Source of the DNA: an uncultured bacterium
GTDB lineage: Bacteria; Omnitrophota; Omnitrophia; Omnitrophales; Abzuiibacteriaceae
Direction of reading: 5' to 3'
Assembly: GCA_964387845.1 (NCBI GenBank)
Contig: CAYLXA010000004.1
Span: 128,001 to 192,000 of the forward strand
Length of the DNA stretch: 64,000 nt
The number at the start of each line of letters is the position of its first letter. Position 1 is the stretch's first letter. A program made the translations under genes and the position numbers. Below the pieces are notes generated by a model. The model saw only the letters and a list, made by a program, of their open reading frames with translations. It ran no database searches and was not told where the DNA came from. Below are positions 34,329 through 59,346 of this stretch, piece by piece.

Positions 34329-34343
34329 ATTTGGCAACACGCT

Positions 34344-36592: not shown

Positions 36593-36594
36593 CC

Positions 36595-38310: not shown

Positions 38311-38381
38311 TTTTCCCAAAAACGCGTTTTTGACTTGTTTTATGCTTGACTTATTATCTGTATTCTTTTAGAGTGTCGAAC

Positions 38382-39713: not shown

Positions 39714-39786
39714 TTCCTCTTAGCTCTTCCTTTAAGTCTTTTGGCCAATTTGGCGATACATAATGAAATACTGATGCCAAATTACC

Positions 39787-40581: not shown

Positions 40582-40629
40582 CCATGGCTTTCATTGCAGG
40601 TTGTTTGGTTATTCATCAAAGTCACGGTC

Positions 40630-40659
40630 ATCCTAATTTTCTGATCGGTAAATTAGGAT
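40630..40659 (+). promoter_or_regulatory. intra-operon hairpin (10-bp perfect inverted repeat atcctaattt / aaattaggat, 10-nt loop) 8 nt upstream of mlaF start
   Basis: Read directly from the sequence. There is no downstream T-tract, so it is not a canonical terminator. Confidence 0.3.
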
Positions 40660-40666
40660 TACCGAT

Positions 40667-41434: not shown

Positions 41435-41450
41435 ACAAGGAGACAGCAAA

Positions 41451-44136: not shown

Positions 44137-45509
44137 GCAGCCGCAATGAGTTCGCCGATCAAAGTTTTATTCCGGACGGATCTGATTTGGATGTGCTGCC
44201 GTGTGCCGGCCAGCTCTGATGCGCCGTTAAAAACCACGTGGCGCTCGTGCTGGGTCTGGCCAATCATCTGGAGTTCGTCTTTTCGGCTGATGTGACTGAC
44301 CAGTACGCTTTCTCGGGACCCGATCAGCTGCTCGTAATGCTTTTTCGTGATCTCATCCTGAATTGCCAGTAATTCGACATTTCGCTTATTTTTAATATCT
44401 TTCGGCACGTCATCTCTCAATTTATAAGCCGGGGTTCCGGGGCGCGGTGAATATTGAAAAATAAAAGCGCCGTCAAACTCGATTTCACGCACTGCGCGTT
44501 TGGTGGCTTCAAAATCTTCTTCCGTTTCACCGCAAAAGCCGACAATAATGTCGGTTGTGAGTGAAATATCGGGAACAAGTTCGCGAAAGCGGTCGACTTT
44601 GGCTTTAAATTCCGCGTACCGGTGAAGCCGTTTCATTCGTTTTAAAATTGCGTCCGAACCCGATTGCAGGGGAAGGTGAAAGCGTCTAGAAACTTTTTTG
44701 CAGTCGCGGATGGCTTGAAACAGTTCTTCGTGCGCATCTTCCGGATGCGACGTTGTGAATGAAATCAATTCGATTCCTTCAATATCATTCAGCATGCGGA
44801 GAAGTTCGGGAAAAGCCGGACTGTTCGGCAAATCCTTGCCGTATGAATTCACGTTTTGTCCCAGGAGCGTAATTTGTTTATAGCCTTGTTCGGCAAGCCG
44901 GACCGCTTCTCTATAAACCTCCCGAGCTGGCATCGATACTTCAGGCCCGCGCGTTGTTGGGACTATGCAGTAAGTGCAAACTTTGTTGCATCCTGTCATG
45001 ATCGGAAGCCAGGCATTGATTCCATCGCCATATTTGGTGAGCTCCGAATATTCAATCCCCAGACCTTCTTTTTTGATGCGCGCGGTTTGTTGGCGGGTTT
45101 TTCGGACAGTTTCCACGATTTCCGGAAGCTCTTTAATATTCCGAGTTCCGCAGAGAAAATCAAGATGAGGAAATTTTTTAAATAACTTTTCTTTATGTTC
45201 TTCCGCCATGCAGCCCATGAGGCCGACGATCAGATCGGGTTTTTGTTCGGCTTTAAAATCGCGGAGCTCATAGAGATGGCCATAAACGCGGGTTTCCGCA
45301 TGTTCGCGAACCGAGCAGGTATTTAATATGAAGACATCCGAATCTTGATAGGGGTTGGCAGTTTCTTTAATGATCTGAAAGCCGGCATTCTCAAGCGTGC
45401 CCAAGGCGACGTCAGAATCATAAAAGTTCATCTGACATCCGAAGGTCTTAATAAACACGACTGGTTTTTTATCAGTAGATGGCCGTGTTTCTTGCTTTTC
45501 CTGTTCCAA
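44133..45509 (-). CDS. miaB: tRNA-2-methylthio-N6-dimethylallyladenosine synthase
   Basis: An MTTase N-terminal cluster (FGCQMN), a radical-SAM CxxxCxxC (CTYC) and a TRAM domain. It uses an apparent TTG start at 45507-45509 with a strong SD (aaggagg) 5 nt upstream, and that start lies inside the recombinase ORF. Confidence 0.85.
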   Translation of the reverse strand: MEQEKQETRPSTDKKPVVFIKTFGCQMNFYDSDVALGTLENAGFQIIKETANPYQDSDVFILNTCSVREHAETRVYGHLYELRDFKAEQKPDLIVGLMGCMAEEHKEKLFKKFPHLDFLCGTRNIKELPEIVETVRKTRQQTARIKKEGLGIEYSELTKYGDGINAWLPIMTGCNKVCTYCIVPTTRGPEVSMPAREVYREAVRLAEQGYKQITLLGQNVNSYGKDLPNSPAFPELLRMLNDIEGIELISFTTSHPEDAHEELFQAIRDCKKVSRRFHLPLQSGSDAILKRMKRLHRYAEFKAKVDRFRELVPDISLTTDIIVGFCGETEEDFEATKRAVREIEFDGAFIFQYSPRPGTPAYKLRDDVPKDIKNKRNVELLAIQDEITKKHYEQLIGSRESVLVSHISRKDELQMIGQTQHERHVVFNGASELAGTRQHIQIRSVRNKTLIGELIAAA

Positions 45510-47149
45510 GTTTCCTCCTTTCTGCCGGTTTTCTCGTTTGCTCTTCGGTTGGCTAACGCATTTTGATACATGGAGCGAAAAGGTTCATAAAGTTCAAACT
45601 TTTCGATTGATCGATTTTCCACTGGAAGCCTTTTAAAAATGAGCATTAAGAATTCTTTTCGGCTGGCCGGATGTAGATTTTCTTTTACAGATTGCGTAGA
45701 TTTTACGATTTCTTGCGCTTTTTTGACATATTCTTTGGACTTTTCTTTTTCGACTAGCCGGAGTTCCATGCGTTCGACCTTAATGCGAAGTTCACCCTCC
45801 TCATTGCGCAGTTTTTGCATTTTTTGCTTGAAGATGCCGCGATTAATGGTTCCTTCCAAATAAACATCCGTGAGGTCGCTTTGTTTTTGAAGGTATGCTT
45901 GCAAATCTTTTCGCATTGCTTCAAGTTCGTACGTTGCTTCACCAGTCGCTCTATTTCGATATTGGTCTGCTACAAGATTCCGAAGCCGTTCCGTAGTAAC
46001 TTCCTTAGCCGAAAAAAGGACATCCAGAACTTCAAAAACCTGTGATTCCAATATCTCTGACCGCACGTCACCGTTGTGGCATTTGATATTGTAAAGGGCT
46101 CTGCCAGAACAGCGGTAATAAGGTCTCTTTTCGCCGGTTCTGTGATTTTTAACATTGGAAATGCCATTGTAGCGGTTTCCGCACTTGGCGCAGGTGATTA
46201 CACCGGATAGCGGATAGTCGCGGACGCGTCGACGCACAAATCGTCCTTTTCGATTTTGGTCTAAGAGTGCTTGAACTTGATAAAAAATTTCTTCAGAAAC
46301 AATCGCCCAATGATTTCCAGTGGCTTCGATGATTTTGGACGGGTCATTCTTGACATAGCGATAACCATGAAGCGTTTTTTGTTTTCGGTCGTAATGGTGA
46401 GCATTCCAAACTAGTTTTCCAATGTAAATCTTATTTCGAAGCATCTTCCGAACGAGAGAACTATTGAACAAACCGCCTGATCGAGTTTTAATTTCACGTT
46501 TGTAAAGTTCACCGCCAATTTTCTGTGTGGAAAGGCCTGAAAGATACTTCTCGAAGATTTCTTTGACGAGTTTTGCTTCTTCTTCAACGATTTCAAGACG
46601 TTTTGTCGTTTTATCGTAATGGTAACCGTAAGGTGCATAACGGGCGCCTTGCCAATGTCCTTCTTGCACGCCGCGGACCATTCCTGGGAACACGCGTTCA
46701 ATAATCCGGTTTCGCTCAAATTCGGCAAAACTTCCAAGCTGTTGAAGCATGAGTTTGCCGGAGCTTGAGGTAGTATCATAGGGCTCTGTTGCGGATTTAA
46801 ATTCAATATCAAGATTTTCGAGTTCATCCAAGAGGTTCAAAAGGTCTTTCAGACGGCGGCTAAAACGGTCTAGTTTATAAACTAAAACTAAATCAAACTT
46901 CCTTGCTCTCGCGTCTTCCAAAAGTTGATTGAGAGCAGGGCGGTCAAGTGAATAACCGCTATAACCATCGTCTTCGTAAATTTTATTCTTGTCGTCCAGA
47001 AAATGAATTTGCCAATCTTGCTTCTTAGAAAATTCGATAAGAGAATCTCGCTGGATATCCAGAGAATAGCCTTCCCGCGCCTGATCTTCTGTGCTCACGC
47101 GCGTGTAAAGGGCTACTTGGATTTGTTTTTTATCGCTTGAATTGTTCAT
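45428..47149 (-). CDS. large serine recombinase (serine integrase)
   Basis: An N-terminal resolvase catalytic domain (YTRVSTEDQ, with the nucleophile Ser), a recombinase domain, a Cys-rich zinc-ribbon region (CAKCG...YRCSGR...CHN) and a coiled-coil C-terminal region. 573 aa. Confidence 0.9.
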   Translation of the reverse strand: MNNSSDKKQIQVALYTRVSTEDQAREGYSLDIQRDSLIEFSKKQDWQIHFLDDKNKIYEDDGYSGYSLDRPALNQLLEDARARKFDLVLVYKLDRFSRRLKDLLNLLDELENLDIEFKSATEPYDTTSSSGKLMLQQLGSFAEFERNRIIERVFPGMVRGVQEGHWQGARYAPYGYHYDKTTKRLEIVEEEAKLVKEIFEKYLSGLSTQKIGGELYKREIKTRSGGLFNSSLVRKMLRNKIYIGKLVWNAHHYDRKQKTLHGYRYVKNDPSKIIEATGNHWAIVSEEIFYQVQALLDQNRKGRFVRRRVRDYPLSGVITCAKCGNRYNGISNVKNHRTGEKRPYYRCSGRALYNIKCHNGDVRSEILESQVFEVLDVLFSAKEVTTERLRNLVADQYRNRATGEATYELEAMRKDLQAYLQKQSDLTDVYLEGTINRGIFKQKMQKLRNEEGELRIKVERMELRLVEKEKSKEYVKKAQEIVKSTQSVKENLHPASRKEFLMLIFKRLPVENRSIEKFELYEPFRSMYQNALANRRANEKTGRKEETWNRKSKKHGHLLIKNQSCLLRPSDVR

Positions 47150-47425
47150 TTATCTCCGTCTTGAATGAATGGGCAATATTATACATAAAATTATCAGAAT
47201 TACCTGCAATAATTACATGGGTCTTCTTGCGTTTTTGTTATCTTGTTCGATCTCTTTTTGTTTTAATGTTTGTTGCAAACGAGCGCGATCTGCTTGAAGC
47301 AAAATCGTAAAAAATCGGCGCAGCCGGTATTTTTGTTCGTTATCTTCGACGGGTGTTTTGTTTTGAATTTGTATTTGACCTAACTTATTTTTCAGATAGA
47401 GGACCTCCTTTCTGGTTTATTAATT

Positions 47426-48379
47426 TTAATCATTGGAATCGTCATCCCCCTGACCGTCAATTGGGCTCATATTGGCATCGACTTCTTCTTCGCCCCCGCT
47501 GGAATATGGGTCTAGAAAATCGTCGTGATCTTCGTCGGAGTTATGGGGCTTCGGAATCGAAATATACGGCTTGCTCGGTTTCCACTTATTTTTGTCCTTA
47601 GGAACAAAGAAATCCTCAAACCACGCAGGATCAATTTCCTTCAAATCTGTCTTGGTGGATTCTCTAATCAATTGTTTCACGGGAAGCCCGTCTGAACCTG
47701 AAAAGAAAACTGCATCTTTTCTATCCTTCATCAAAGCCTCAAACGTGATGAAGAAAAAACGGTTTGTGGGGTCATGCTTCTTTCTCACTCTTGAAATAAA
47801 CGACTCCGAGCGGCAGATATAAAGCACCGCGTCAAACTTATCGCTGTCATCGTATTGGCTAAAAATACTCTTGTATCTGGCCAGTCTTTTTTCTGTCCGT
47901 TCGTATTCAATGGCATAGAGAGCCTTTTGAGTCATCAAAAACGCATCCGGCACAGAGCCTCTGGGCCTGAATGAGCGGATCACACGTTCTGGAAACCAAG
48001 TCTCAACCCCCAATTCGTAAAAGAGAACCCGGATGTCGGTTAACGCCTTGTCATGCCCAAAATTAGCAAATGCTCTATCCCTTGATATCTTGAGCGCGTA
48101 TTTTGAACCCTGAGACCTGAGCAGTAAAAACGATTTCTGGGTTGGAATATAGATATCCCTTGCTTCGGTGTAGACCTTTTTCTTGGCAATGTATCCCGCT
48201 TTCATCAATTTCAAGATTCTTCTATAACAAGCTCTCTTAGGATTGCAATCTTCAAAGAACACCCTCCCAATCTGATCCAACGTCATAAACTTCATGTGGA
48301 CTAACCACATCAAGAGCTCACTATCTCTCGAATTTAACTGCATGATAAAAATACTCCTTTCTAAAAGAATTACTTTCAC
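47426..48379 (-). CDS. replication-relaxation family protein (plasmid Rep-like)
   Basis: A 317-aa protein with an N-terminal winged-helix-like region and an acidic C-terminal tail. The family assignment is by resemblance, at moderate confidence. It has an apparent GTG start, it is co-oriented with the recombinase, and the repeat-rich non-coding DNA is on its upstream side. Confidence 0.5.
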   Translation of the reverse strand: MKVILLERSIFIMQLNSRDSELLMWLVHMKFMTLDQIGRVFFEDCNPKRACYRRILKLMKAGYIAKKKVYTEARDIYIPTQKSFLLLRSQGSKYALKISRDRAFANFGHDKALTDIRVLFYELGVETWFPERVIRSFRPRGSVPDAFLMTQKALYAIEYERTEKRLARYKSIFSQYDDSDKFDAVLYICRSESFISRVRKKHDPTNRFFFITFEALMKDRKDAVFFSGSDGLPVKQLIRESTKTDLKEIDPAWFEDFFVPKDKNKWKPSKPYISIPKPHNSDEDHDDFLDPYSSGGEEEVDANMSPIDGQGDDDSND

Positions 48380-48399
48380 TGACGAGCACTAGATACAAA

Positions 48400-48472
48400 C
48401 TTTTCCCGACTACTCAATCTCACAAACTCAATCCAAAATAAACCATGGAAGAGAGTGAGTAGTCGGGAAAAG
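48400..48472. repeat. 17-bp perfect inverted repeat (cttttcccgactactca / tgagtagtcgggaaaag) with a 39-bp spacer, just upstream of the rep-relaxation gene
   Basis: Read directly from the sequence. Confidence 0.8.
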
Positions 48473-48584
48473 AAAATGCGCCGAATTGCGAGGCAGTGAA
48501 AGCGCTTACAAAAAATTGCTTAGGGAAACTCAATTTCCCAACCACTTTCCCCAACCAAAAGTGCACCAAAGAACAAAAACACCT

Positions 48585-49030
48585 CTCATTGATGTTGTGC
48601 AAAAACAGGCATTTCGTAACAAAGAAATCCAAAATTCCAGATAAAAAATATTTTTCATGCCCCTTCACCTAAAAAACCAACAAGTCCCCCCATATATAGG
48701 GGGCCAAAAATGGGGGTCTCGCAGAGATTTGCGAAAATATTTTCAATTCCACCTAAAAATAGTTTGAATCCCAACCCTCCGTTCTCAATCACCTAAAACC
48801 CTAAAAGTCCTCCCATTGATGTTGTGCAAAAACAGCACTTTCGACGACAAGAAAATTCAATTAACAGATGGAAAAATATTTTTTATACATTTTTTCTGAG
48901 ACTTTTTAGGTAATCACTTAAAAAAACAACAAGTGCTCCCTATATAAAGGTGCAAAAACAGGGTGTTTTGGTAGAAAATCACGAAAATAGTTTGATCTTC
49001 ACCTAAAATTTTAATTTTAGTCTTTTTTTC
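48585..49030. repeat. two imperfect tandem repeats of about 226 bp containing reiterated cacctaaaa motifs and a 17-bp perfect palindrome (cccccatatataggggg, 48686-48702)
   Basis: The units begin at about 48585 and 48811 (attgatgttgtgcaaaaacag at 48588 and 48814). The cacctaaaa motifs start at about 48666, 48749, 48789 and 48999. Confidence 0.7.
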
Positions 49031-49282
49031 CTGTTTTACATTTGGATCGTAATTTCTCACATAGTGTGTGGCTTAGGCCTATTTCCTCTTGAGTCTTCAC
49101 GATTTTATTGTGAAAGCTCGTGGTTTCGATACCACCAGCTCATACCACCATGTTTAATTTGCTCATTGACCTGGAAAATGATTGAAGATTGAGAGTCGTT
49201 TAACCGCAATCTGGACACCGATCAAGCTTTTGACCTATCACATGGTCAGTCACTTCGGTGCTGGACAGGTTACTAATTTTTT

Positions 49283-49471
49283 TCAACGTTTTTTGCGTTT
49301 CTTTCTCGGCTCTCTCACTGCGGCTGATTCGATCTTCTGAAGGAGATCTTCATTTTCCTGTTCAACTTGTTTCAGCGCCTCACGTAGCCTGAGCATTTCC
49401 TCGATAAGATCATCTTTGGATTCTTCTTGAAGAAAAATTCTATCCCCGTGAAATGGGTTGGCGGCCGTCAT
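49283..49471 (-). CDS. small hypothetical protein (62 aa; coiled-coil with basic C-terminal tail RKKRKKR)
   Basis: An ORF with no convincing SD. Its position at the distal end of the element suggests a small DNA-binding or partition-like protein, but this is weak. Confidence 0.3.
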   Translation of the reverse strand: MTAANPFHGDRIFLQEESKDDLIEEMLRLREALKQVEQENEDLLQKIESAAVREPRKKRKKR

Positions 49472-49573
49472 CGCAGATGTAGGGTCTTAGAAAAAGAATT
49501 AAGATGATTTGTTAGGATTCGCTAAAGGATTGCGTGCGATAAAAACCTGTTGCTTTTTATGATCAGGAGTGTT

Positions 49574-49594
49574 ATATTTCGTATAACGAAATAT
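49574..49594 (+). promoter_or_regulatory. putative MarR operator: 9-bp inverted repeat atatttcgt-ata-acgaaatat followed by ttcgtataat (-10-like) upstream of marR
   Basis: The palindrome overlaps a TATAAT-like box 20-30 nt upstream of the MarR start. Confidence 0.4.
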
Positions 49595-49622
49595 TCGTAT
49601 AATAAAATATATGGGGAGATTT

Positions 49623-50102
49623 ATGAAATTGTTTACCCTGGAAGCTTTTGGAGACCGGATGATTGAGCTGTTCCCGCAGCTGATGCGGGAGATCTCGCAG
49701 TATGAGACTAATTATCTGACCGAAGGAGTGATTACGGTTCCGCAGGTCTGGGTCTTGGATTTTCTGAAAGATGGAAAGTCTGCCCAGATGAACGAACTCG
49801 CCGCGTACATGAAACTTAAGTTTTCGTCCGCGACAGGCCTTGTTGACCGCATGGTCAAGCACCAGCTTGTAAAGCGCGTCCGGAGCGAGACCGACCGGCG
49901 GGTCGTGCTAATATCCATCACTTCCAAAGGTAAGAAAATTTTGCAGGAAATATACAAGCAAAAGCGCAAGGGAATTATGCGATTATTCGGCCGGTTAGGT
50001 TCCGAAGACCGCATGCAGTATATGGAACTTATCGAAAAGCTTGTAAAAGATCTTTCCTCCACCCCTTCTCAGGAAAACCGTTATGCCGACCGTCATCATT
50101 GA
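49623..50102 (+). CDS. MarR family transcriptional regulator
   Basis: A winged-helix MarR fold pattern. The start is at the second ATG (MKLF), which has a ggggaga SD. Confidence 0.8.
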   Translation: MKLFTLEAFGDRMIELFPQLMREISQYETNYLTEGVITVPQVWVLDFLKDGKSAQMNELAAYMKLKFSSATGLVDRMVKHQLVKRVRSETDRRVVLISITSKGKKILQEIYKQKRKGIMRLFGRLGSEDRMQYMELIEKLVKDLSSTPSQENRYADRHH

Positions 50103-50307
50103 AGGCCCCCGATTAAGTTTGGAGGGTAAAAAGGAACTGGTTCAGAAACTGGCCCCGCTCGCGGCTCATGTTTATGACTGGAAAGTTGAAGATGTGGTCG
50201 TGATCATCCGAGAGAATGCGGATGAAAATGTGGCTCGCGGAGGCGTTTTGTTATCGGAGCGGAAAGATCGTGGAATGCAGGCTGTCCATAAAAAGGGGCC
50301 TCAATGA
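50083..50307 (+). CDS. tautomerase superfamily protein (4-oxalocrotonate tautomerase-like, Pro-1)
   Basis: It begins MPTVIIEG and is about 74 aa. It is translationally coupled, overlapping marR by 20 nt and tolC by 4 nt. Confidence 0.6.
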   Translation: MPTVIIEGPRLSLEGKKELVQKLAPLAAHVYDWKVEDVVVIIRENADENVARGGVLLSERKDRGMQAVHKKGPQ

Positions 50308-51740
50308 AAGACTGTCAGAAAAACTATATTGGAGCAGGCTTTTTGAAAGGACAAAAGCGTTTCTTGGGAGCTTTTTTGTGCTTGAGCGTGGCGGGTTTTT
50401 TTATGCACTGTGAAGCGTTTGCCCAAAACGGCTCCTTATCTGCACCGGGCCCCGGGGATTTGAAGGCCGCTCAGAACGTCGATAGTCAAACCCCCTCCTT
50501 GACGCTTGAAGAGTCGTTTCAGCTTGCTTTCAAAAATCATGAAGAGGTTCAAATCGCAATTTTTAGTGAGAAAGAGCAGGGGCTCTTGCCCTGGCGCGCT
50601 TTTTCCGCAATTCTCCCTACCGTGACCGGAAGCGCGGGCGTTACCTATCCAAAAGAGCAAATTGCGTTTGCACAATCTGTTATTGTTGCAGACCCCCTGA
50701 AGGAGGCTGACATTACCGTCAGGCAGCCGTTATTTAACGGACAGACGCTCCCGGCCTACATACGCGCAAGAAACCTTTCGGAAGCCTCATCCGAAAGCAA
50801 ATATTTCGAAATTCGCCGCGTTTTGTTCAATGTGGCACAGGCCTATTTTTCGCTTCTGCAAAATCAAAAGCTGGTTGATGTTGCCGAGGAATCTCTGAGG
50901 CTGGCACAGGAGCAGCTTAGGATTTTGTCTGAACGTTACGAGGCGGGACAAGCACCCAAAAATGATTTTCTGCGCGCCCAGGTTGAAGTGAGCCGTGCCG
51001 AGAGAACTTTAACGGAAAGCCGTAATAACCGGGAACTTGCGGGCAGTACGCTGGCCAGCTTCATTGGTATGCCGGTTCCGGAAATCAAAGAGGCCCGTTT
51101 GGTTGAACCTGAATCTGACCCAACCGTCAGACTCGAAGAAAATGATGAGCTTCAAAAATATATCGAGATTGCCGGAAATCATCGCAATGACCTCAGGAGC
51201 TTAAAAGAACAAGTAGATGCCAAAAAATGGGAAGTCAGGCAGAAATGGGCTGCGTTTCTTCCCAATGCCGACTTGATATTTGAACAATCCTGGCTCGAAC
51301 CCGAAAGTTTTTCGCGGCAGAACAATTTCTGGACAGCCGGATTTCAGTTTACATTTCCTTTTTTTGAAAAAGGAGAGCGAGCGCTAAATGTGAGTGAACA
51401 AAGATACGAACTCAAACAGCTTCGGCTGCGACTCGAAAGGCTTCGAAAAGACATTGCGCTTCAGGTCGAAGAAGCCTGGCGGGCGGCACAGACCACCAAA
51501 GTCAATCTGAACGCGGTTCTCAAAGAAAAAGAGCTTTCCCAGGAAAATTACGATGTGATTCTCAGCCGCTATGAATCCGGACAATCCTCCAGTCTTGATG
51601 TGATCGATGCTTTTGCGGAGCTCACCAATGCAAAAACCATCGCCGTAACGGAACAATATGCTTATCAGCTTTCTCTTCTTAACCTTTTGAAGCAGGCCGG
51701 ACTGTTCGGGCAATCTTATATAGAGCCGCAAAGAAAATGA
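50304..51740 (+). CDS. TolC-family outer membrane efflux protein
   Basis: A signal peptide followed by two OEP repeats. 478 aa. Confidence 0.85.
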   Translation: MKDCQKNYIGAGFLKGQKRFLGAFLCLSVAGFFMHCEAFAQNGSLSAPGPGDLKAAQNVDSQTPSLTLEESFQLAFKNHEEVQIAIFSEKEQGLLPWRAFSAILPTVTGSAGVTYPKEQIAFAQSVIVADPLKEADITVRQPLFNGQTLPAYIRARNLSEASSESKYFEIRRVLFNVAQAYFSLLQNQKLVDVAEESLRLAQEQLRILSERYEAGQAPKNDFLRAQVEVSRAERTLTESRNNRELAGSTLASFIGMPVPEIKEARLVEPESDPTVRLEENDELQKYIEIAGNHRNDLRSLKEQVDAKKWEVRQKWAAFLPNADLIFEQSWLEPESFSRQNNFWTAGFQFTFPFFEKGERALNVSEQRYELKQLRLRLERLRKDIALQVEEAWRAAQTTKVNLNAVLKEKELSQENYDVILSRYESGQSSSLDVIDAFAELTNAKTIAVTEQYAYQLSLLNLLKQAGLFGQSYIEPQRK

Positions 51741-52657
51741 GGAGTCTTTTTGTGAAAAGAAAGTTAAAAAATCAAACAAATGTTTCCATTTTGATTTTTC
51801 CATTGCTATGTTTAGTTTTGGCTTCTGGATGCGGTAAACACAATGGGAAAATGCCGCCAGGCGTGCCTGTCGATGCGATTAAAGTGCAACCGGAAAAGTT
51901 AGAACATATTTTAAAAGTTGTCGGCAATATCAAGGCGCAGGATGAAGCAACTTTGTATTCTAAGGTAGCCGGAAAGCTGATCAAATATGTGGTGAAAGAA
52001 GGGCAGGCGGTAAAAAAAGACGACACCGTAGCTTTGCTCGACCGTGATGAAGTCGGATTCAAATACCAGGAGGCTCCGGTAAAAACGACGCTTGATGGGG
52101 TCGTGGGACGTACTTATTTGGATGCGGGTGCGGATATCCAGTTGAGTACGCCTGTAGCGCTTGTTGTGGATATGCGTCAAGTGCGTATTTTGATACAGGT
52201 GCCCGAACAAGATTTGCCCGATGTGAAGGAAGACCAAACCGCCCATGTTTATGCGGATGCTTTTCCAAAAGATATATTCGAAGGAAAAGTCATTAAAGTG
52301 AGCCCAATTGTGGATCTTCAAACCCGAACAGCGCCCGTTGAAATCGAAGTTCCTAACCCCGAATACCGGTTGAAGCCCGGAATGTTTGCACGTGTTGAAC
52401 TCGTCACGCGAGTTTTCGAGAATGCCGTGATGATTCCTGAGGCGGCCATTGCTTACGAGAGCGGCAAGCCCTCTGTTTTCGTTGTCAAAGACGGTAAAGC
52501 ACAAAGGCGGAGTATTGAGACCGGCATGCGGGAAATTGGAAGAGTTCAAATTACCAAAGGGCTCGAGGGCGGCGAAGTTGTGGTGACAGCCGGCCATCTG
52601 AAGATCCGCGACGGCTCCGAAGTTGCGATCGCTCAGGAACAAACCAACTCTGGGTAA
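51737..52657 (+). CDS. efflux RND transporter periplasmic adaptor subunit
   Basis: A lipobox (LASGCG) and an HlyD/MFP biotinyl-lipoyl plus beta-barrel pattern. Confidence 0.85.
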   Translation: MRSLFVKRKLKNQTNVSILIFPLLCLVLASGCGKHNGKMPPGVPVDAIKVQPEKLEHILKVVGNIKAQDEATLYSKVAGKLIKYVVKEGQAVKKDDTVALLDRDEVGFKYQEAPVKTTLDGVVGRTYLDAGADIQLSTPVALVVDMRQVRILIQVPEQDLPDVKEDQTAHVYADAFPKDIFEGKVIKVSPIVDLQTRTAPVEIEVPNPEYRLKPGMFARVELVTRVFENAVMIPEAAIAYESGKPSVFVVKDGKAQRRSIETGMREIGRVQITKGLEGGEVVVTAGHLKIRDGSEVAIAQEQTNSG

Positions 52658-52707
52658 TTTAAACTTTATTTCTATAGACTACGCCATAGATAAATTAAGG
52701 GAAATAC

Positions 52708-55700
52708 ATGCTATCGAAATTCTTTCTTGACCGGCCGGTTTTTGCGTGGGTGATTGCCATCATTTTGATGGTCTTGGGCTTACTGGCTATTTACCAGCTT
52801 CCGATATCGCAATATCCCCCCATTGCCCCGCCTTCCATTGCCATCACGAGTTTTTATCCGGGCGCTTCAGCCGAAACCGTAGAAAATACCATAACCCAGA
52901 TCATCGAACAAAAAATGACGGGCTTCGAAGAGATGTTGTACATGTCTGCCACAAGCGATTCGGCTGGCGCCTCACGCATAGAACTCACGTTCAAGCCAGG
53001 AACAGATCCGGATTTGGCCTGGGCCAAGGTGCAGAATAAACTCCAGCTGGCTATGGCAAGCCTTCCTGAAGTGGTGCAGCGTTCGGGGGTGACGGTAAGC
53101 AAATCGACGAGGAATTATCTCATCATTATCGGCCTTGTCTCGGAAGATGGCAGTATGGATGACCATGCGCTGCGTGACTATGCTCAATCAAATCTTGAAA
53201 AGGTGCTGGCGCGCGTGCCGGGAGTCGGAGAGGTTGAGACTTTCGGGACCCAGTATGCGATGCGCATCTGGATCAATCCCGATAAGCTGATAGAATACGG
53301 TCTTACGGTTCAAGACGTTGTCCATGCTTTGGATACCTATAACGTAGAAGTGTCGGCCGGTCAGTTCGGCGGACTTCCAGCTGTTGAAGGCCAGCGGCTT
53401 AACGTCTCCATCATTATTCAAAATTTGCTGCAGACCCCCGAGGAATTTGCCTCCATTCCGGTCCGAACCAATCCGGACGGATCGATTATTCGCATCAGGG
53501 ATGTCGGCGGAACTGAACTCGGCACCGAGTTCTACGATATCGTCAATGTATATAACGGCAAACCGGCTGCCGCTATGGCGGTAAGGCAGGCCCCTGGCGC
53601 AAACGCGCTCGATACAGCAGAGGCAGTCAAGGCGAAACTCGAAGAGATGAGCCGCTATTTTCCGCATGGCATGAAGGTGGTTTATCCTTATGACACAACT
53701 CCCTTTGTTGAGGTGGCGATTCATGAGGTTGTCAAAACTCTCTTCGAGGCCATCTTGCTGGTGTTCCTTGTTATGTATCTGTTTATGGGAAATATTCGGG
53801 CAACGTTAATTCCCACGATTGCCGTGCCGGTCGTCCTTTTGGGCACTTTCGCTGTACTGGGACTCTTCGGGTTTTCGATCAACATGCTGACGATGTTCGC
53901 CATGGTCTTGGCAATCGGGCTCCTTGTAGATGATGCGATCGTAGTGGTTGAAAACGTAGAACGCCTGATGTCGGAGGAAGGTCTTTCGCCACGGGATGCC
54001 ACCGCCAAATCAATGGAGCAGATCACAAGCGCTCTGATCGGTATCGGCTTGGTGCTTTCCGCCGTTTTTGGTCCCATGGCTTTTTTCCCGGGTTCAACGG
54101 GAGTCATTTACCGCCAGTTCTCCGTGACGATTATTGCCTCGATGATGCTCTCGGTGGTAGTCGCCTTGATTCTGACACCGGTTCTCTGCGCAGCGCTGCT
54201 GAGACCGGTGCCAAAAGGGCATGAACCGGCAGAAAATGCGATTTGGTTCCTACGTCCCTTTTTTATGAAATTCGACCGCTTTTTCTTCCGGATTCGTGAA
54301 CGCTACATCGCGATTGTAGACCACTCCTTGGCGCATAAACTGCGTTATATCATACTGTACACAGGCATCATAGGCGTGATCGCATTCCTCTTTTTCCGTC
54401 TTCCCACCGGCTATTTACCGGACGAGGACCAGGGAATCCTGCTTGCGCAGATTGTAATGCCGACCGGCTCGACTTTGGAACAAACGAAAGCGGTTACGGA
54501 CAGGGTCCAACAACATTTTGAGCAAAATGAAAAAGATGCCGTGGAATCTTCTATGGCAATAGTGGGTAACGGTTTTTCGGGCAGAGCGCAGAATAACGCG
54601 ATGGTCTTTGTCAAACTCAAGGACTGGAAAGAGCGCGGGCGCAAAGAATTATCGGCAAAGGCCGTGGCGGGAAGAGCAATGGGAGCATTTTCAGCGATTC
54701 GCGAGGCCATTGCTTTTGTTTTTCCTCCGCCTGCCGTCCTTGAACTTGGCTTTGGCCGAGGCTTTGACTTCCAGTTAATCGACAGAGGCGGATTGGGACA
54801 TGAGGCTTTGATGAATGCCCGGAATCAACTGCTCGGCATGGCAGCTCAGGATAAGCGGCTTACGAAAGTGCGCCCGAACGGTATGGAGGATGTCCCTCAA
54901 TTTCGAATCGATGTGGATTGGGAAAAAGCGGGCATGTTGGGAATTCCGATCGCTTCGATCCATAGCACACTCTCGGCAGCTTTTGGCGGGGCCTATGTCA
55001 ATGATTTCATCCAAGGCGGGCGCGTGAAACGCGTGTACATTCAAGCGGATACTCCTTACCGCATGCTGCCGGATGATCTCGAAAAAATTTATGTCCGCAA
55101 CATTTCAGGGCAGATGGTTCCCTTTGCATCTTTTGCATCGACGCGCTGGGCCTCGGGCGCTCCCCGCCTCGAACGCTTTAACGGATTTTCATCCATGAAC
55201 ATCTGGGGAGAGCCTGCGCCAGGCAAAAGTTCCGGTGAGGCGATGCAGGCCATGGAAGAACTTTCCGGAAAACTGCCCAAAGGATTCGGCTATGATTGGG
55301 CAGGTCTGTCGTATCAGGAAAGGATGGCCACGGCTCAGGGACCAATTCTTTACGCGTTCTCCATTCTCGTGATCTTCCTTTGCGTAGCGGCCTTATATGA
55401 GAGTTGGAGTATTCCGTTCGTGAATCTCCTGATGCTGCCGCTCGGAGTATTCGGCGCTTTATTTGCGACTTCCCTGAGAGGCCTGACTAACGACGTTTAC
55501 TTCCAGATTGGTTTCCTTACAACCATGGGACTTTCTACAAAAAACGCCATTCTTATCATTCAGTTCATCAAAGAGCAGATGCAGCAGGGGCTCGGCCTGG
55601 TGGAGGCGACTCTCGCTGCTGTAAAGATCCGCTTCCGTCCGGTTATCATGACATCTCTCGCGTTTTTCTTTGGGACGCTGCCGCTCGCTCTGGCTTCCGG

Positions 55701-55872
55701 GGCAGGCGCGGGCGCGATGAACGCCATCGGCACAGCCGTGACAGGGGGTATGATCTCGGCAACCTTTATTGATCTGGTGTTTATTCCATTATTTTTCGTT
55801 TTGATATCCCGTTTCTTTGGGCGCAAAACAAAAAATACTCAAACTACCGGCGAAGGAACAATTAAGTCGTGA
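52708..55872 (+). CDS. efflux RND transporter permease (AcrB/HAE1 family)
   Basis: A 1054-aa protein with twelve TM segments and two large periplasmic loops, and AcrB family motifs. Confidence 0.9.
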   Translation: MLSKFFLDRPVFAWVIAIILMVLGLLAIYQLPISQYPPIAPPSIAITSFYPGASAETVENTITQIIEQKMTGFEEMLYMSATSDSAGASRIELTFKPGTDPDLAWAKVQNKLQLAMASLPEVVQRSGVTVSKSTRNYLIIIGLVSEDGSMDDHALRDYAQSNLEKVLARVPGVGEVETFGTQYAMRIWINPDKLIEYGLTVQDVVHALDTYNVEVSAGQFGGLPAVEGQRLNVSIIIQNLLQTPEEFASIPVRTNPDGSIIRIRDVGGTELGTEFYDIVNVYNGKPAAAMAVRQAPGANALDTAEAVKAKLEEMSRYFPHGMKVVYPYDTTPFVEVAIHEVVKTLFEAILLVFLVMYLFMGNIRATLIPTIAVPVVLLGTFAVLGLFGFSINMLTMFAMVLAIGLLVDDAIVVVENVERLMSEEGLSPRDATAKSMEQITSALIGIGLVLSAVFGPMAFFPGSTGVIYRQFSVTIIASMMLSVVVALILTPVLCAALLRPVPKGHEPAENAIWFLRPFFMKFDRFFFRIRERYIAIVDHSLAHKLRYIILYTGIIGVIAFLFFRLPTGYLPDEDQGILLAQIVMPTGSTLEQTKAVTDRVQQHFEQNEKDAVESSMAIVGNGFSGRAQNNAMVFVKLKDWKERGRKELSAKAVAGRAMGAFSAIREAIAFVFPPPAVLELGFGRGFDFQLIDRGGLGHEALMNARNQLLGMAAQDKRLTKVRPNGMEDVPQFRIDVDWEKAGMLGIPIASIHSTLSAAFGGAYVNDFIQGGRVKRVYIQADTPYRMLPDDLEKIYVRNISGQMVPFASFASTRWASGAPRLERFNGFSSMNIWGEPAPGKSSGEAMQAMEELSGKLPKGFGYDWAGLSYQERMATAQGPILYAFSILVIFLCVAALYESWSIPFVNLLMLPLGVFGALFATSLRGLTNDVYFQIGFLTTMGLSTKNAILIIQFIKEQMQQGLGLVEATLAAVKIRFRPVIMTSLAFFFGTLPLALASGAGAGAMNAIGTAVTGGMISATFIDLVFIPLFFVLISRFFGRKTKNTQTTGEGTIKS

Positions 55873-56351
55873 AAGCCAGATATGCCAATCAGCATGATTT
55901 TCAAGCCTTTGAAGAAAACCTGACGTTCTTCATGCGTTATTTGTTGGCGCACGGGTTGAAAATACTGGCAAGCTACAAGATCAACCTTGCCCAGTATTTT
56001 ATTCTCTTCGAATTGAGTCATGACACGGCATTGCCCATGTTCTTCTTTGCTGAACATTACCCTCTTTCTAAACCTTCGTTCACAAATAATATCGACAGGC
56101 TTGTTTCACGAGGACTCGTGACACGTATGCGAGGGACCGAGGATAGACGGACGATTTTAGTTTCCATTACGACGAGTGGAAAAAAGCTTATGGGCAACCT
56201 TCAAAGAACGCGGCTCAAATTCTTGCAAAGCTACTTTAATCGTCTGCCCCCGGCCAAGCAGCATGCTTTGACCGAACTTTTAGCGGCTCTCCGGCCGGTT
56301 CATGAAGAATCATGCGCAGGAAAAAGTATTAAAAATATTCTGAAAGAATAA
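55869..56351 (+). CDS. MarR family transcriptional regulator
   Basis: A MarR wHTH pattern. It overlaps the RND gene stop by 4 nt. Confidence 0.75.
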   Translation: MKARYANQHDFQAFEENLTFFMRYLLAHGLKILASYKINLAQYFILFELSHDTALPMFFFAEHYPLSKPSFTNNIDRLVSRGLVTRMRGTEDRRTILVSITTSGKKLMGNLQRTRLKFLQSYFNRLPPAKQHALTELLAALRPVHEESCAGKSIKNILKE

Positions 56352-56356
56352 AACTT

Positions 56357-56587
56357 ATGATTACATGGATCGGTCTTTGCGCTGGAGAAATTTGGAATTG
56401 TTTGGACATGCATGGTGGTAAAGCAGAATTTCATATTCTGTTTTCGGAAATCAATGCGCCACAGGAAACCATTTTGATGGCAATGGGATGGCTTGCCAGA
56501 GAAGGCTACATCATCATTGACGGATCTTTTCCTTCAGGCGTGATCAAACTTAAAGAGCATCCACCCATGCCACTTGCAGAAAAATGA
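56357..56587 (+). CDS. winged helix-turn-helix domain protein (DUF2582-like)
   Basis: A 76-aa protein carrying the MAMGWLAREGYI motif characteristic of DUF2582 wHTH proteins. Confidence 0.55.
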   Translation: MITWIGLCAGEIWNCLDMHGGKAEFHILFSEINAPQETILMAMGWLAREGYIIIDGSFPSGVIKLKEHPPMPLAEK

Positions 56588-56642
56588 TGCCCAATATCAT
56601 GAGAGACTGGCAAATCGTTTGAGGCTGTGAAAGGGGAAGATT

Positions 56643-57032
56643 ATGGGACAAACAAAAAATCAATATATTCCCGGCGTTTGCAATATCGGCACGGCGGAAA
56701 TTAAGAAACGCAAACAAGCGGGATGGATAGGGCTTGCCGCAACTATTGTCCTATGGGGACTCCTTATTTACCTTAATGTTGCACCAGCCTGGCGATTACT
56801 TCTCTTTTTCCCGGCGATGATGTCGGCAATAGGATTTCTCCAGGCCTACATGCATTTCTGCGCCTATTACGGTTTCACTGCTCTTTTTAATTATGGCGAT
56901 TTCGGCAAAAAAGATACTATCCAGCAAGCTGAATTTCGCGTCCAAGATAGACGCAAGGCGTGGCAAATTGTCATTTACTCTGTACTTATCGGTATAGCGG
57001 TCGCTCTTCTGTCATACATGTTTCAGTTATAG
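56643..57032 (+). CDS. hypothetical membrane protein (about three TM segments, two Cys)
   Basis: An SD (aaggggaag) upstream and hydrophobic segments in the sequence. Confidence 0.5.
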   Translation: MGQTKNQYIPGVCNIGTAEIKKRKQAGWIGLAATIVLWGLLIYLNVAPAWRLLLFFPAMMSAIGFLQAYMHFCAYYGFTALFNYGDFGKKDTIQQAEFRVQDRRKAWQIVIYSVLIGIAVALLSYMFQL

Positions 57033-57218
57033 ACCTCTATTGAGCGAAACCAAAAAAAGAGCAAGGAGGGCAGCAACCGCATGAAAATACTCGTTCTTAT
57101 CTTCCGCGCGCTGAAAGAATTTTCTAAAGCGCGGCATAAGGAGGACGAGCAGGTGTCCATCCGGATCTTCGCTGTTCCATGCGAGCAGCTACTCTAAAAT
57201 CAAGGAGGTAAAGAAACC

Positions 57219-57611
57219 ATGCGATACGTAGTGTTATTGGGGAGAATATTCTATTCGTCCATCTTCGTCATGGCCAACCTGTTCCATTTCTCCGGCCAAG
57301 CCATCACGCACGCGGCCGACGAAGGGGTTCCCATGGCGGGGGTCTTGGTTCCCCTGTCGGGGATTATCGGCTTGGCGGGAGGATTCAGCATCCTGCTGGG
57401 CTACAAGGCCAAGTGGGGCGCCTGGCTCCTGGTGCTGTTTCTCGTGCCCGTCACCCTCATGATGCACAAGTTCTGGGCGGTTGCCGACCCGCAGGCCGCC
57501 ATGATGCAACAGGTTATGTTCATGAAGAATGTCTCCATGCTCGGAGCGGCTCTTTTGATCAGCCATTTCGGGGCCGGACCTCTCAGCCTGGACGCCCGCA
57601 AGACAGGTTGA
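57219..57611 (+). CDS. DoxX family membrane protein
   Basis: A DoxX pattern across four TM segments and a strong SD (aaggagg). The gene is conspicuously GC-rich (about 60%) with GC3-rich codons, unlike its neighbours. Confidence 0.75.
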   Translation: MRYVVLLGRIFYSSIFVMANLFHFSGQAITHAADEGVPMAGVLVPLSGIIGLAGGFSILLGYKAKWGAWLLVLFLVPVTLMMHKFWAVADPQAAMMQQVMFMKNVSMLGAALLISHFGAGPLSLDARKTG

Positions 57612-57840
57612 GTTAAAATCCGTAGGCCGCCTTTATTATCTCAACCGCCTGTCGGGTATAGGAAAGCCAAGGGTCAGCCGAACGTCTTAATATGTAGTTT
57701 TAGCGGCTTTGTAGACATGACGGAGATTATACCAAAAGGCGGCCGAGAATAGAAGCCTCTCAACATATTGAAATACAATGACTTAGGAAAAGATTGATTT
57801 TGAGTTTAATCTGTGGTAAATCTGTGTCCCTCGGTGATAT

Positions 57841-58587
57841 ATGCCCAAACAAAAGAAAGTACCCAATCGCGATAAGCTGTTTGACGAAAAGCGCAGCTTG
57901 ATCGAAAACTTCAATTTCGGAAAAGCCACGGCGCAAGTCTTTGATGACATGTTGAACCGGTCCGTGCCTTTTTACGGTGAGATGCAGCGGATGATGGCGG
58001 AGATGGCCGGTGATTTCGCGGTGGAAGGCACAAATCTCTATGATTTGGGCTGCTCGACCTGCACGACATTTCTTCATATTGACCAGAGCGTCAATCCGGG
58101 CGTGACGTTTGTCGGTGTAGATTCTTCTCAGGAAATGCTCGATAAAGCCAAGCAAAAGTTGAAAGCGGCGGGGTTTAAACGCGATTACGAACTCGTTTGC
58201 GCGGATATCAATAAAGGCGTTGAAATCAATAACGCATCGGTTGTCATCATGAACCTGACGCTTCAGTTTGTCCGCCCGCTTTACCGCGAGAAATTGATTC
58301 AAAGCATCGCGCGCGGTCTAAATGACGGCGGCTGCCTGATCTTGATTGAAAAAGTACTTTCCGAATATTCCACGCTGAACCGTCTCTTCATTAAATATTA
58401 TTACGATATGAAGAAACGGAACGGTTACTCGGATCTTGAAATTGCGCAAAAGCGGGAAGCGCTGGAGAATGTCTTGATCCCGTACCATTTTGATGAAAAC
58501 AGGGAACTCTTGCTCAAAAACGGTTTTAAAGGCTGTGACATGTTCTTCCGCTGGTATAACTTTTGCGGCATGGTTGCGCTCAAATAA
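57841..58587 (+). CDS. cmoA: carboxy-S-adenosyl-L-methionine synthase
   Basis: Strongly CmoA-like: RSVPFY, YDLGCS, NGYSDLEIAQKR..LENV and C-terminal FNF...VALK blocks that match E. coli CmoA. Confidence 0.85.
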   Translation: MPKQKKVPNRDKLFDEKRSLIENFNFGKATAQVFDDMLNRSVPFYGEMQRMMAEMAGDFAVEGTNLYDLGCSTCTTFLHIDQSVNPGVTFVGVDSSQEMLDKAKQKLKAAGFKRDYELVCADINKGVEINNASVVIMNLTLQFVRPLYREKLIQSIARGLNDGGCLILIEKVLSEYSTLNRLFIKYYYDMKKRNGYSDLEIAQKREALENVLIPYHFDENRELLLKNGFKGCDMFFRWYNFCGMVALK

Positions 58588-58590
58588 TTC

Positions 58591-59346
58591 ATGCCGGCTC
58601 CGAGCGCGAAAGTCCCCAATCCGGTTTTGCTCAATTCCGGAAATTTCTTTTTTAAATTCCGCAATTTTATTTTCCCAGCTGTTTTTGTTTCTTTGTTTTT
58701 ATTTACACGCCCGGCGCTTTTCCTCAACGACCCGGAACTTGATCGTTTAACCGTTCTGCTGGGAGTTGTGATTGCCTTCGCCGGCCAAATTTTCCGGTTT
58801 ACAGTAATCGGCTTTGCCTACATTAAGCGCGGCGGCAAGGAAGGGAAGGTCTACGCGGATGATTTGGTGATCCAGGGGTTTTATGCGCACGTGCGCAATC
58901 CAATGTATGTCGGAAACTTTCTGATCACTGTCGGAATCGGCATTGTTTACGGTTCTCCCTGGATTTATTTTATCGTGATTCCGTTTTTCACATTTGTCTA
59001 TTTATCGATTGTGACGGCCGAAGAAAATTATCTTCGGCAAAAATTCGGCGCTCAATATGAGCATTACGAAAAGACGGTGAACCGGTTCGTCCCGAATTTT
59101 CAGGGAATTCAAAACACGCTCAAAGATTTTAAATATGATTGGAAAAAGGCGCTCCGGAAAGAATATGGAACGGTTTTTGGAACCATGGCGGGGATCCTCT
59201 TGATTCTGATCTGGAAATACTACGTTGTGTTTGGCTGGAAGGCGGGAAAGGCCACGATCGTGAATTTCGGCCTTCTATTAATTCCCGCCGTCTTATTTTA
59301 TGCGATTGTGCGGTTTTTGAAATTAACCAAACGGCTTCAGTCTTAA
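58591..59346 (+). CDS. isoprenylcysteine carboxyl methyltransferase / phospholipid methyltransferase family (ICMT/PEMT) membrane methyltransferase
   Basis: A polytopic membrane protein with RNPMYVG and the C-terminal EE..L...FG..Y..Y SAM-binding motif. It starts 4 nt after the cmoA stop. Confidence 0.75.
   Translation: MPAPSAKVPNPVLLNSGNFFFKFRNFIFPAVFVSLFLFTRPALFLNDPELDRLTVLLGVVIAFAGQIFRFTVIGFAYIKRGGKEGKVYADDLVIQGFYAHVRNPMYVGNFLITVGIGIVYGSPWIYFIVIPFFTFVYLSIVTAEENYLRQKFGAQYEHYEKTVNRFVPNFQGIQNTLKDFKYDWKKALRKEYGTVFGTMAGILLILIWKYYVVFGWKAGKATIVNFGLLLIPAVLFYAIVRFLKLTKRLQS

Follow-up and report, generated by a model that had tools for sequence, protein, structure and literature searches.

A tautomerase-fold protein clade with a consistent efflux context, carried in an uncultured Omnitrophota bacterium on an integrative island in miaB

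What is a small tautomerase-superfamily protein doing inside a multidrug-type efflux operon? The question is raised by a 64-kb stretch of an uncultured Omnitrophota genome (GenBank assembly GCA_964387845.1, contig CAYLXA010000004.1, positions 128,001 to 192,000; hereafter the window, numbered from its first letter), in which a 74-amino-acid (aa) protein of tautomerase fold, here called Taut, is encoded between a MarR-type repressor and a tripartite pump of the resistance-nodulation-division (RND) class. The open reading frame (ORF) list, together with Pfam and NCBIfam profile matches, gives the order MarR1-Taut-OMF-MFP-RND-MarR2-DUF2582 on the + strand at 49.6-56.6 kb, where OMF is the outer-membrane factor and MFP the membrane fusion protein, or periplasmic adaptor. 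An initial annotation, made from the letters and ORFs alone, had called a tautomerase in an RND operon atypical. This holds for tautomerases generally, but Taut belongs to a clade, marked by Trp-33 and an ARGG motif, whose members as a rule sit in efflux operons, in various phyla and with various classes of pump; the RND pump itself is ordinary, and the embedded Taut gene is not peculiar to this single locus.

Taut exceeds the Pfam gathering threshold (GA) of the Tautomerase family (Table 1), and its NCBIfam scores all stay below the equivalog cutoffs (NF041920 DmpI, 64 vs 70; TIGR00013, 40.6 vs 56.9; NF001966, 27 vs 80). Its nearest solved relative by sequence is Archaeoglobus fulgidus DmpI (PDB 3M20). 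An AlphaFold (AF2) monomer model from a 60-sequence alignment (predicted local distance difference test, pLDDT, 86) forms a single beta-alpha-beta unit (E3-8, H13-31, E39-44) plus a C-terminal hairpin. Foldseek returned 3M20 as the first match to this model (template-modelling score 0.92, root-mean-square deviation 1.1 A), and the 4-oxalocrotonate tautomerase (4-OT) family filled the entire top 30, including 17 of the 17 matches at E <= 0.001. The N-terminus reads MPTVIIEG, with a proline directly after the initiator methionine (Pro-1). Pairwise comparison with orthologous loci gave dN/dS values of 0.12-0.29, inside the range of the neighbouring genes, and Taut is therefore a protein-coding gene under purifying selection. 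The initial annotation was right to read this ORF as a real gene for a Pro-1 protein of the superfamily, and the tautomerase fold, whose absence it had named as counter-evidence, is present in the model.

Taut is a member of the 4-OT fold family and not a canonical 4-oxalocrotonate tautomerase (EC 5.3.2.6). In 4-OT, Arg-11 and Arg-39 bind the carboxylates of the natural substrate, the Pro-1 pocket is shaped by the hairpin of residues 51-56 together with Met-45 and Phe-50, and position Ala-33 is a hot spot for activity (PMC4786785). When Taut is aligned with the Pseudomonas putida enzyme, Arg-11 and Arg-39 are replaced by Pro-9 and Val-39, such that both canonical arginines are missing, and Trp-33, Asn-45, Val-50 and Arg-52 occupy pocket positions. 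Because the arginines are lost and the Pro-1 pocket is remodelled, 2-hydroxymuconate is doubtful and, judged from these residues, unlikely as a substrate; phenylenolpyruvate, which the initial annotation had likewise put forward, is doubtful for the same reasons. The neighbours of Taut are regulators and efflux components only, with no aromatic meta-cleavage operon.

We scanned for the clade in species-representative genomes (17 loci) and metagenome contigs (61 loci), using a query alignment of clade members only; the loci and contigs compared carry L-numbers (L001, L097 and so on). The proteins recovered split in two: the clade, with Tyr/Phe-x-Trp at positions 31-33 and the motif ENxDxN[VI]ARGG, and non-clade relatives from archaea, Actinomycetota and others, which lack the tryptophan and instead read ENPPENVGxxG. 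The clade signature includes Pro-1, Trp-33, Glu-44-Asn-45, Asp-47, Asn-49 and Ala-51-Arg-52-Gly-53-Gly-54. Gly-54 is invariant across 60 clade proteins, and Pro-1, Trp-33, Asn-45, Asn-49, Ala-51, Arg-52 and Gly-53 each reach at least 90% conservation; all of these residues except Pro-1 are missing in the non-clade relatives. Among 1.84 billion 50%-identity representatives, a profile search matched 810; the clade is rare, since only about 7-10 of the best 150 carry its signature.

Neighbouring genes were screened with the pump proteins of the window and those from the first matches, and key cases were confirmed by Pfam/NCBIfam. At least one tripartite-pump gene was adjacent on the contig for 28 of 33 distinct clade sequences, representing at least five phyla, compared with 0 of 30 full-length non-clade sequences (Fisher p ~5e-12, with the loci being phylogenetically non-independent). 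L083, the sole nominal non-clade case with a pump, proved to be a truncated clade copy beside a major facilitator superfamily (MFS) gene, and in four more independent look-ups, diverse proteins of the clade encoded on long contigs proved in each case (4/4) to lie in efflux operons. The papers searched contained nothing on the association of the clade with efflux, and a global survey of the tautomerase superfamily makes no mention of efflux, transporters or MarR. The clade is small and undescribed, with a strikingly consistent efflux context.

The operons linked to the clade show at least eight gene orders, with pumps of the RND or the DHA2-MFS (EmrAB-type) class and regulators of the MarR or TetR family, TetR being the usual one outside Omnitrophota. 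Besides the Omnitrophota arrangement (MarR-Taut-OMF-MFP-RND-MarR-DUF2582), the commonest is TetR-MFP(EmrA)-PF13189-Taut-MFS(EmrB), at about 20 loci including a Terriglobia metagenome-assembled genome. The remainder comprise MarR-OMF-MFP-MFS-PF13189-Taut (L006), the core of which, OMF-MFP-MFS-PF13189-Taut, recurs in L026 with MarR not detected and Taut decayed; TetR-OMF-Taut-MFP-MFS-PF13189 (L095/96); RND-OMF-Taut (L053), with OMF-Taut visible on the short contigs L049 and L051; MFP-RND-OMF-...-TetR-Taut (Verrucomicrobiia L015 and L090); RND-Taut-aldehyde dehydrogenase-Usp (Methylomirabilota L014); and OMF-PF13189-Taut (L038). The clade tracks the pump; regulator family and transporter class both vary.

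The usual partner of Taut in efflux operons outside Omnitrophota is a 'cytidylate kinase-like' P-loop protein of family PF13189 (CytKin2; examples in Table 1), which matched no NCBIfam model and for which our literature search returned nothing. Taut of the Terriglobia type (L012 9001-9234, L032, L035) ends in a conserved basic C-terminal tail, GRPRRSPQAHRSxSDExK, that is absent from the Omnitrophota copies and might be a docking peptide. In one lineage, represented by L041 (1401-3575) and L081 (433-5284), a trio of radical S-adenosylmethionine (SAM) enzyme, PF13189 protein and Taut, the last frameshifted in L081, lies beside a squalene-hopene cyclase gene and not beside a pump. We considered a link of the CytKin2-Taut pair to hopanoids on this account and rejected it: the arrangement is confined to that single lineage, and a preprint on hopanoid transport is silent on these genes.

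Turning to the operon itself, the six genes listed in the initial annotation (MarR, Taut, TolC-type channel, MFP, RND and MarR) are all present where it had placed them on the + strand, and their families are confirmed, although it had missed the DUF2582 gene that follows MarR2 after a 5-nucleotide (nt) gap. Its statement that every junction measures 0-20 nt fails at MFP/RND, where the genes are separated by an AT-rich spacer of 50 nt in which we detected no significant secondary structure. The other junctions fit: MarR1 and Taut share 20 nt, Taut and OMF share 4 nt (ATGA), OMF and MFP either overlap by 4 nt or stand 11 nt apart depending on the MFP start codon, and RND and MarR2 share 4 nt (GTGA). 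The first 13 OMF codons are poorly conserved, for which reason the downstream TTG is also possible as the OMF start. Scans for consensus promoters and terminators inside the operon gave matches at chance level only, and an Rfam scan of the window found tRNAs only, all outside the operon locus. Co-orientation, tight packing, the lack of an above-chance terminator and a conserved palindrome at the promoter all favour the single polycistronic unit that had been proposed, and it is from this arrangement that we infer co-transcription of the genes from MarR1 to DUF2582.

Table 1. Features of the efflux operon, the surrounding island and its target gene in the window, with examples of the PF13189 partner protein at other loci (nt positions).
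Feature	Coordinates	Strand	Evidence or remark
MarR1 repressor	49623-50102, alternative start 49611	+	PF01047 41.3 bits vs GA 24.6
Taut, 74-aa 4-OT-fold protein	50083-50307	+	PF01361 Tautomerase 32.0 bits vs GA 22
TolC-type OMF with signal peptide	50304-51740, alternative TTG start 50343	+	PF02321 171 bits vs GA 22
Periplasmic adaptor MFP, hairpin-less BesA type	51752-52657, alternative start 51737	+	TIGR01730 193 bits vs 94.9
AcrB-like HAE-1 RND permease, 1054 aa	52708-55872	+	TIGR00915 HAE1 1542 bits vs 940
MarR2, GTG start	55869-56351	+	PF01047 40.8 bits vs GA 24.6
DUF2582 winged-helix protein	56357-56587	+	Present after MarR2 in all Omnitrophota copies
Putative promoter TTGCTT, 17 nt, TGtTATATT (extended -10)	49550-49610	+	Operator array overlaps -10
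Large serine recombinase, 573 aa	45428-47149	-	Resolvase + Recombinase + Zn_ribbon_recom (Pfam); PHROG 95 integrase 1e-121
Replic_Relax-like protein, 317 aa	47426-48379	-	Weak: 24.3 bits vs GA 25.3; PHROG replication initiation weak
AT-rich, ORF-poor stretch with iteron-like direct repeats	48576-48962		80-nt pair (71% identity) and GTGCAAAAACAGG x3; GC 0.38
129-aa membrane protein, island cargo	56643-57032	+	Absent from sister genome
DoxX-family membrane protein, island cargo	57219-57611	+	Absent from sister genome
miaB (tRNA methylthiotransferase), target gene	44133-45509	-	Homologues named MiaB
Island-end direct repeat (att core) ATTAAGACCTTCGGATG	45436-45452	-	Codons I-K-T-F-G-C of functional miaB
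Second repeat copy ATTAAGACGTTCGGCTG	57675-57691	-	
Stranded original miaB 5' end	57674-57731	-	TGgTATAAT box 57734-57726; 14-codon ORF MSTKPLKLHIKTFG* 57718-57674
PF13189 protein, examples at other loci	L012 8341-8964; L006 9334-9987; L038 541-1203; L095 10927-11571		Also ~20 metagenome loci

The RND permease scored 1332 bits against Escherichia coli AcrB and 1283 bits against MexB. It carries the motifs LLVDDAIVV (VDDAIV at 407, transmembrane helix 4), STKNAIL (KNAIL at 945, transmembrane helix 10) and RFRPVIMTS (at 975), which we take to correspond to D407/D408/K940/R971 of AcrB. The OMF has two PF02321 repeats and a TIGR01844 score of 161, below the cutoff of 225. The MFP is only ~301-306 aa long, and its closest PDB match, BesA (4KKS, 79 bits), aligns over residues 43-298 in one uninterrupted block lacking any hairpin insertion. 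A hairpin-less adaptor is an unusual partner for an AcrB-like pump and a TolC-type channel of full length, and the pairing bears on how tripartite pumps assemble.

MarR1 and MarR2 are paralogues with 30% identity, neither of which reaches an NCBIfam equivalog cutoff; below threshold, the homoprotocatechuate regulator HpaR comes closest (50 vs 121). Regulators of the MarR family typically repress by occlusion and are released by a ligand. Upstream of MarR1, an array of the form TTCGT-ATA-ACGAA-ATA-TTCGT (49578-49598), containing a perfect 9-nt inverted repeat (ATATTTCGT/ACGAAATAT), is conserved at the orthologous loci, and sequence further upstream is not. A further copy was sought elsewhere in the operon and none was found. 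From its sequence and placement, the array is a putative MarR operator.

Homologues of Taut are named Candidatus Omnitrophota, a phylum in which the seven-gene cluster occurs in at least three other lineages: UBA2337 (L001-L004, L010, L029), with 90.4% nt identity to window positions 49569-56723; HK-STAS-OMNI-5 (L005/L011), with ~83-84%; and the lineage of L007, with ~83-84% and a shortened form of the cluster. DNA homology starts exactly at 49569 in all comparisons, and the rest of the 64-kb window is unmatched at those loci. In all Omnitrophota copies, Taut and MarR1 share 20 nt. Pairwise dN/dS against the orthologous loci is 0.05-0.41 across the operon genes, which signifies purifying selection. 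Synonymous divergence (dS) forms a mosaic along 49623-56587 when compared with L001 and L005 (against L005, 1.59 for RND and 0.21 for MFP), and the strong differences between genes point to recombination between lineages inside the block. In L005 (8612-10216), an MFS gene and a second Taut are inserted between RND and MarR2; this second copy, a recent duplicate that matches the first at 93% nt identity across 160 nt, overlaps MarR2. The same locus begins (1-380) with at least four copies of a 72-nt tandem repeat at the end of a gene for 6889 residues with a NUDIX match, and this giant repetitive protein gene adjoins a toxin-antitoxin pair flanking the operon. All organisms carrying these operons are uncultivated.

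How did the operon reach this position? It lies within a 12.2-kb island that comprises the recombinase, the Replic_Relax-like gene, orf62, the efflux operon with DUF2582, the 129-aa membrane protein and DoxX (Table 1). The 17-nt direct repeat at the island ends, ATTAAGACSTTCGGMTG, matches twice in the window, with 0 matches expected by chance. At the near end, the island supplies the 5' end of miaB, with a Shine-Dalgarno sequence (AAGGAGG) and a TTG start at 45509 (MEQEKQETRPSTDKKPVVF...), overlapping the 3' end of the recombinase gene; the new MiaB N-terminus supplied in this way reads MEQEKQETRPSTDKKPVVFIKTFGCQMN.... In the protein collection, the homologue closest to this MiaB shares 89% identity with it and the second-best 65%. 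The closest one is encoded on L097 (also L098), a contig of 377 kb that runs collinear with the window, at 75% nt identity over window positions 34206-45446 and 78% over 57672-59361, and in which only ~90 bp correspond to window positions 45447-57671. Genes for a methyltransferase, PEMT and M16 directly precede miaB in this sister genome; in the window, they lie to the right of DoxX.

Together, the end repeats, the serine recombinase at one end and the absence of the segment from the closest genome demonstrate at the sequence level that the efflux operon is cargo of a 12.2-kb integrative element inserted in the conserved miaB codons for IKTFGC, as the initial annotation had suspected from its position. 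The alternative it had allowed for, a core operon conserved in all relatives without the element, is contradicted by the sister genome, which lacks the segment; this lack and the differing flanking contexts of the operon argue for horizontal transfer. The iteron-like repeat region has a GC content of 0.38-0.43, vs ~0.47 elsewhere in the window; its repeats, adjacent to the Replic_Relax-like gene, suggest a putative origin of plasmid type within the element. The same operon in L005 has as neighbours two homologues of Replic_Relax and another serine recombinase, with 28% identity, whose gene runs into dnaJ; the block has therefore been captured by such elements more than once. Island-end repeats were sought in L005, and only local operator-like repeats near dnaJ were found; an exact look-up of the recombinase returned the same genomic context only and no independent boundary. 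The 12.2-kb element contains no phage or conjugation genes, and PADLOC gave no defence-system matches among the island ORFs.

Two further observations concern the integration site and its cargo. Upstream of miaB in L097 (9880-10060), ~100 nt ahead of the true start, a second version of the MiaB N-terminus (MLTKPLKLHIKTFGC...) is encoded by an ORF of 38 aa. This duplicate resembles a scar from a previous integration at the same attachment (att) site, which would make the miaB site a recurrent hot spot. In other genomes, the operon shows no linkage to the DoxX gene, which is co-cargo on this island. Quinone-stress regulons of the MarR type in Bacillus include DoxX-like proteins, and the presence of DoxX here would fit a theme of aromatic or electrophile stress.

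Considering the locus as a whole, we think it fairly probable that the operon provides an inducible tripartite efflux system with a Pro-1 enzyme, a two-tier 'pump plus enzyme' defence on a mobile element. The system would consist of the TolC-type channel, the BesA-like hairpin-less adaptor and the AcrB-like, proton-driven RND pump. MarR1, and probably also MarR2 and DUF2582, would repress it through the TTCGT/ACGAA array over the -10 element, and a small-molecule effector would lift the repression. Taut, predicted to be cytoplasmic and probably a hexamer, would be translated from the same message right behind MarR1 and co-translated with MarR1 and OMF. It would act through its N-terminal proline in a remodelled pocket in which Trp-33, Asn-45 and Arg-52 replace Arg-11/Arg-39, and would most likely isomerise, hydrate or otherwise neutralise whatever part of the inducer or pump substrate reaches the cytoplasm; this compound would most likely be an enolic, aromatic or alpha,beta-unsaturated carbonyl acid. 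Pump and enzyme would then form the two tiers of the defence. The coupling of enzymatic conversion to export, as first proposed from the gene order, stays conjectural and is strengthened by the co-occurrence of clade and pump.

More tentatively, the Trp-33/ARGG clade as a whole may be an unrecognised dedicated partner of tripartite RND and DHA2-MFS pumps. In such an 'enzyme-coupled efflux' module, the Pro-1 catalyst would modify or hand over a toxic metabolite, mostly together with the PF13189 protein, and the module would be spread on small serine-recombinase elements.

Several points weigh against a combined pump and enzyme defence. RND pumps take their substrates mainly from the periplasm or the outer leaflet, and a cytoplasmic enzyme is not needed for export. 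Some clade members (L013, L041/L081, L052 and L056) have no visible pump neighbour; in the Aquificota exception, L013, the order is TetR, methyltransferase, Taut. Several clade copies (L026, L081 and L083) are decayed, which hints that Taut is dispensable. Sampling is biased, since patterns from motifs of the clade itself, MPTV[IT][IV]EGP and RENx[DN]ENVA, served to find the loci. Most members outside Omnitrophota are paired with the PF13189 protein, which is missing from the window operon, and the Omnitrophota version may be a reduced or a different system. Finally, both Taut copies of L005 overlap a MarR gene, an arrangement that also fits a regulator-linked role.

This last point leads to the alternative that fares best, namely that Taut makes or destroys the effector of the adjacent MarR proteins, tuning pump induction instead of detoxifying the substrate. 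Such a role would be in keeping with the 20-nt MarR1 overlap throughout Omnitrophota, with the duplicate in L005 that overlaps MarR2, and with L015, L090 and L013, in which Taut directly follows a TetR gene. We nevertheless regard it as unlikely: Taut is not beside the regulator in the commonest arrangement, TetR-MFP-CytKin2-Taut-MFS, nor in RND-OMF-Taut or OMF-Taut-MFP-MFS, and whether the regulator is MarR or TetR, the association with the pump persists.

Alternatively, the pump could export an endogenous metabolite, with Taut, the PF13189 protein and radical SAM enzymes providing a tailoring or biosynthetic step. The Omnitrophota island is devoid of biosynthetic genes, however, and MarR/TetR regulators with multidrug-type AcrB/EmrB pumps are typical of xenobiotic responses, which together make this explanation distinctly unlikely. 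Its appeal lies in the recurrence of the CytKin2-Taut pair and in known biosynthetic 4-OT homologues, such as TomN, which is among the fold matches; the radical SAM genes that adjoin L041/L081, L045 and L092/93 point the same way, but are inconsistent as neighbours and belong to different subfamilies.

A third possibility concerns the origin of the locus: the operon could be ancestral, with L097 having deleted a 12-kb segment and the recombinase module being an unrelated neighbour. The duplicated miaB N-terminus ~100 nt upstream in L097 does resemble a scar left by element loss. The 17-nt repeats of target codons at both ends, one abutted by the recombinase and the other holding the stranded original promoter and 14 codons, are at odds with this account, as are the 83-90% nt identity of the operon block in three unrelated contexts with flanks unlike those of the window, and the tie in L005 between the operon and a different pair of serine recombinase and Replic_Relax. 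We consider it quite improbable, and the segment would be accessory even so. Very improbable, finally, is a non-catalytic Taut, in which the hexamer would serve as a substrate binder or, attached to the transporter or adaptor, as a cytoplasmic chaperone or gating factor, and Pro-1 would be structural: the canonical catalytic arginines are lost and the basic tail of the Terriglobia group (GRPRRSPQAHRS..) could dock, but Pro-1 and the polar pocket residues N45, D47, N49 and R52 are conserved as an active site would be, the gene position relative to OMF, MFP and transporter varies, and the RND and MFS partners have unrelated cytoplasmic faces.

Efflux operons are usually described as pump plus regulator. 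An enzyme family that follows pumps across phyla, transporter superfamilies and regulators would indicate a specific natural substrate class for 'multidrug' pumps, and the tautomerase superfamily would gain a functional subgroup that is new and easily recognised by its genomic context. The island, for its part, illustrates how such a module spreads in an uncultivated phylum, Omnitrophota, and documents an integration strategy in which insertion in the IKTFGC codons of miaB is accompanied by replacement of the 5' end of the gene.

With respect to known systems, the locus shares with AcrAB-TolC and MexAB-OprM (MexR) an HAE-1 permease, OMF and MFP genes and a MarR-type regulator by the pump. It differs from them in its order of regulator, enzyme, OMF, MFP, RND and regulator, in its two MarR paralogues and additional DUF2582 winged helix-turn-helix protein, in an adaptor without alpha-hairpin, in the embedded Taut and in its location on an integrative element. 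BesABC of Borrelia burgdorferi likewise combines a hairpin-less adaptor (BesA, 4KKS) with an AcrB-like pump and a TolC-like channel, but belongs to another phylum, the adaptor similarity is only 79 bits, and the Borrelia locus presumably lacks both tautomerase and MarR genes. Outside Omnitrophota, most relatives in the clade belong to operons of the EmrA/EmrB type, resembling EmrRAB (EmrR/MprA, EmrA, EmrB), and the L012 transporter scores 465 bits against the TIGR00711 cutoff of 230; the pump of the window is an RND and not an MFS transporter, and we assume that neither a tautomerase nor a PF13189 gene is part of the classical emrRAB operon. DmpI (3M20) and 4-OT of P. putida mt-2 match Taut in length class, beta-alpha-beta fold, N-terminal proline and a short beta1 strand with an 'EGP/YGP' turn, whereas Taut has the clade-specific Trp-33, Asn-45, Asp-47, Asn-49 and Arg-52 and a context of efflux instead of aromatic meta-cleavage.

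Large-serine-recombinase elements that restore the end of their target gene offer a parallel for the island, with the recombinase at the edge, short repeats within an ORF and a replacement 5' end; compared with these, the element in the window is very small (12.2 kb), its Replic_Relax gene and iteron-like repeats resemble an integrated plasmid, and its target is the IKTFGC codons of miaB. Enzymes embedded in RND operons also have precedents, in the short-chain dehydrogenases of Stenotrophomonas smeU1VWU2X and the lipase-like gene llpE of Burkholderia ceo/bpeEF. In these cases, as is proposed for the window, a soluble enzyme gene is co-transcribed within an RND operon; they involve other enzyme families and are restricted to a genus, whereas the Taut clade spans phyla and transporter superfamilies.

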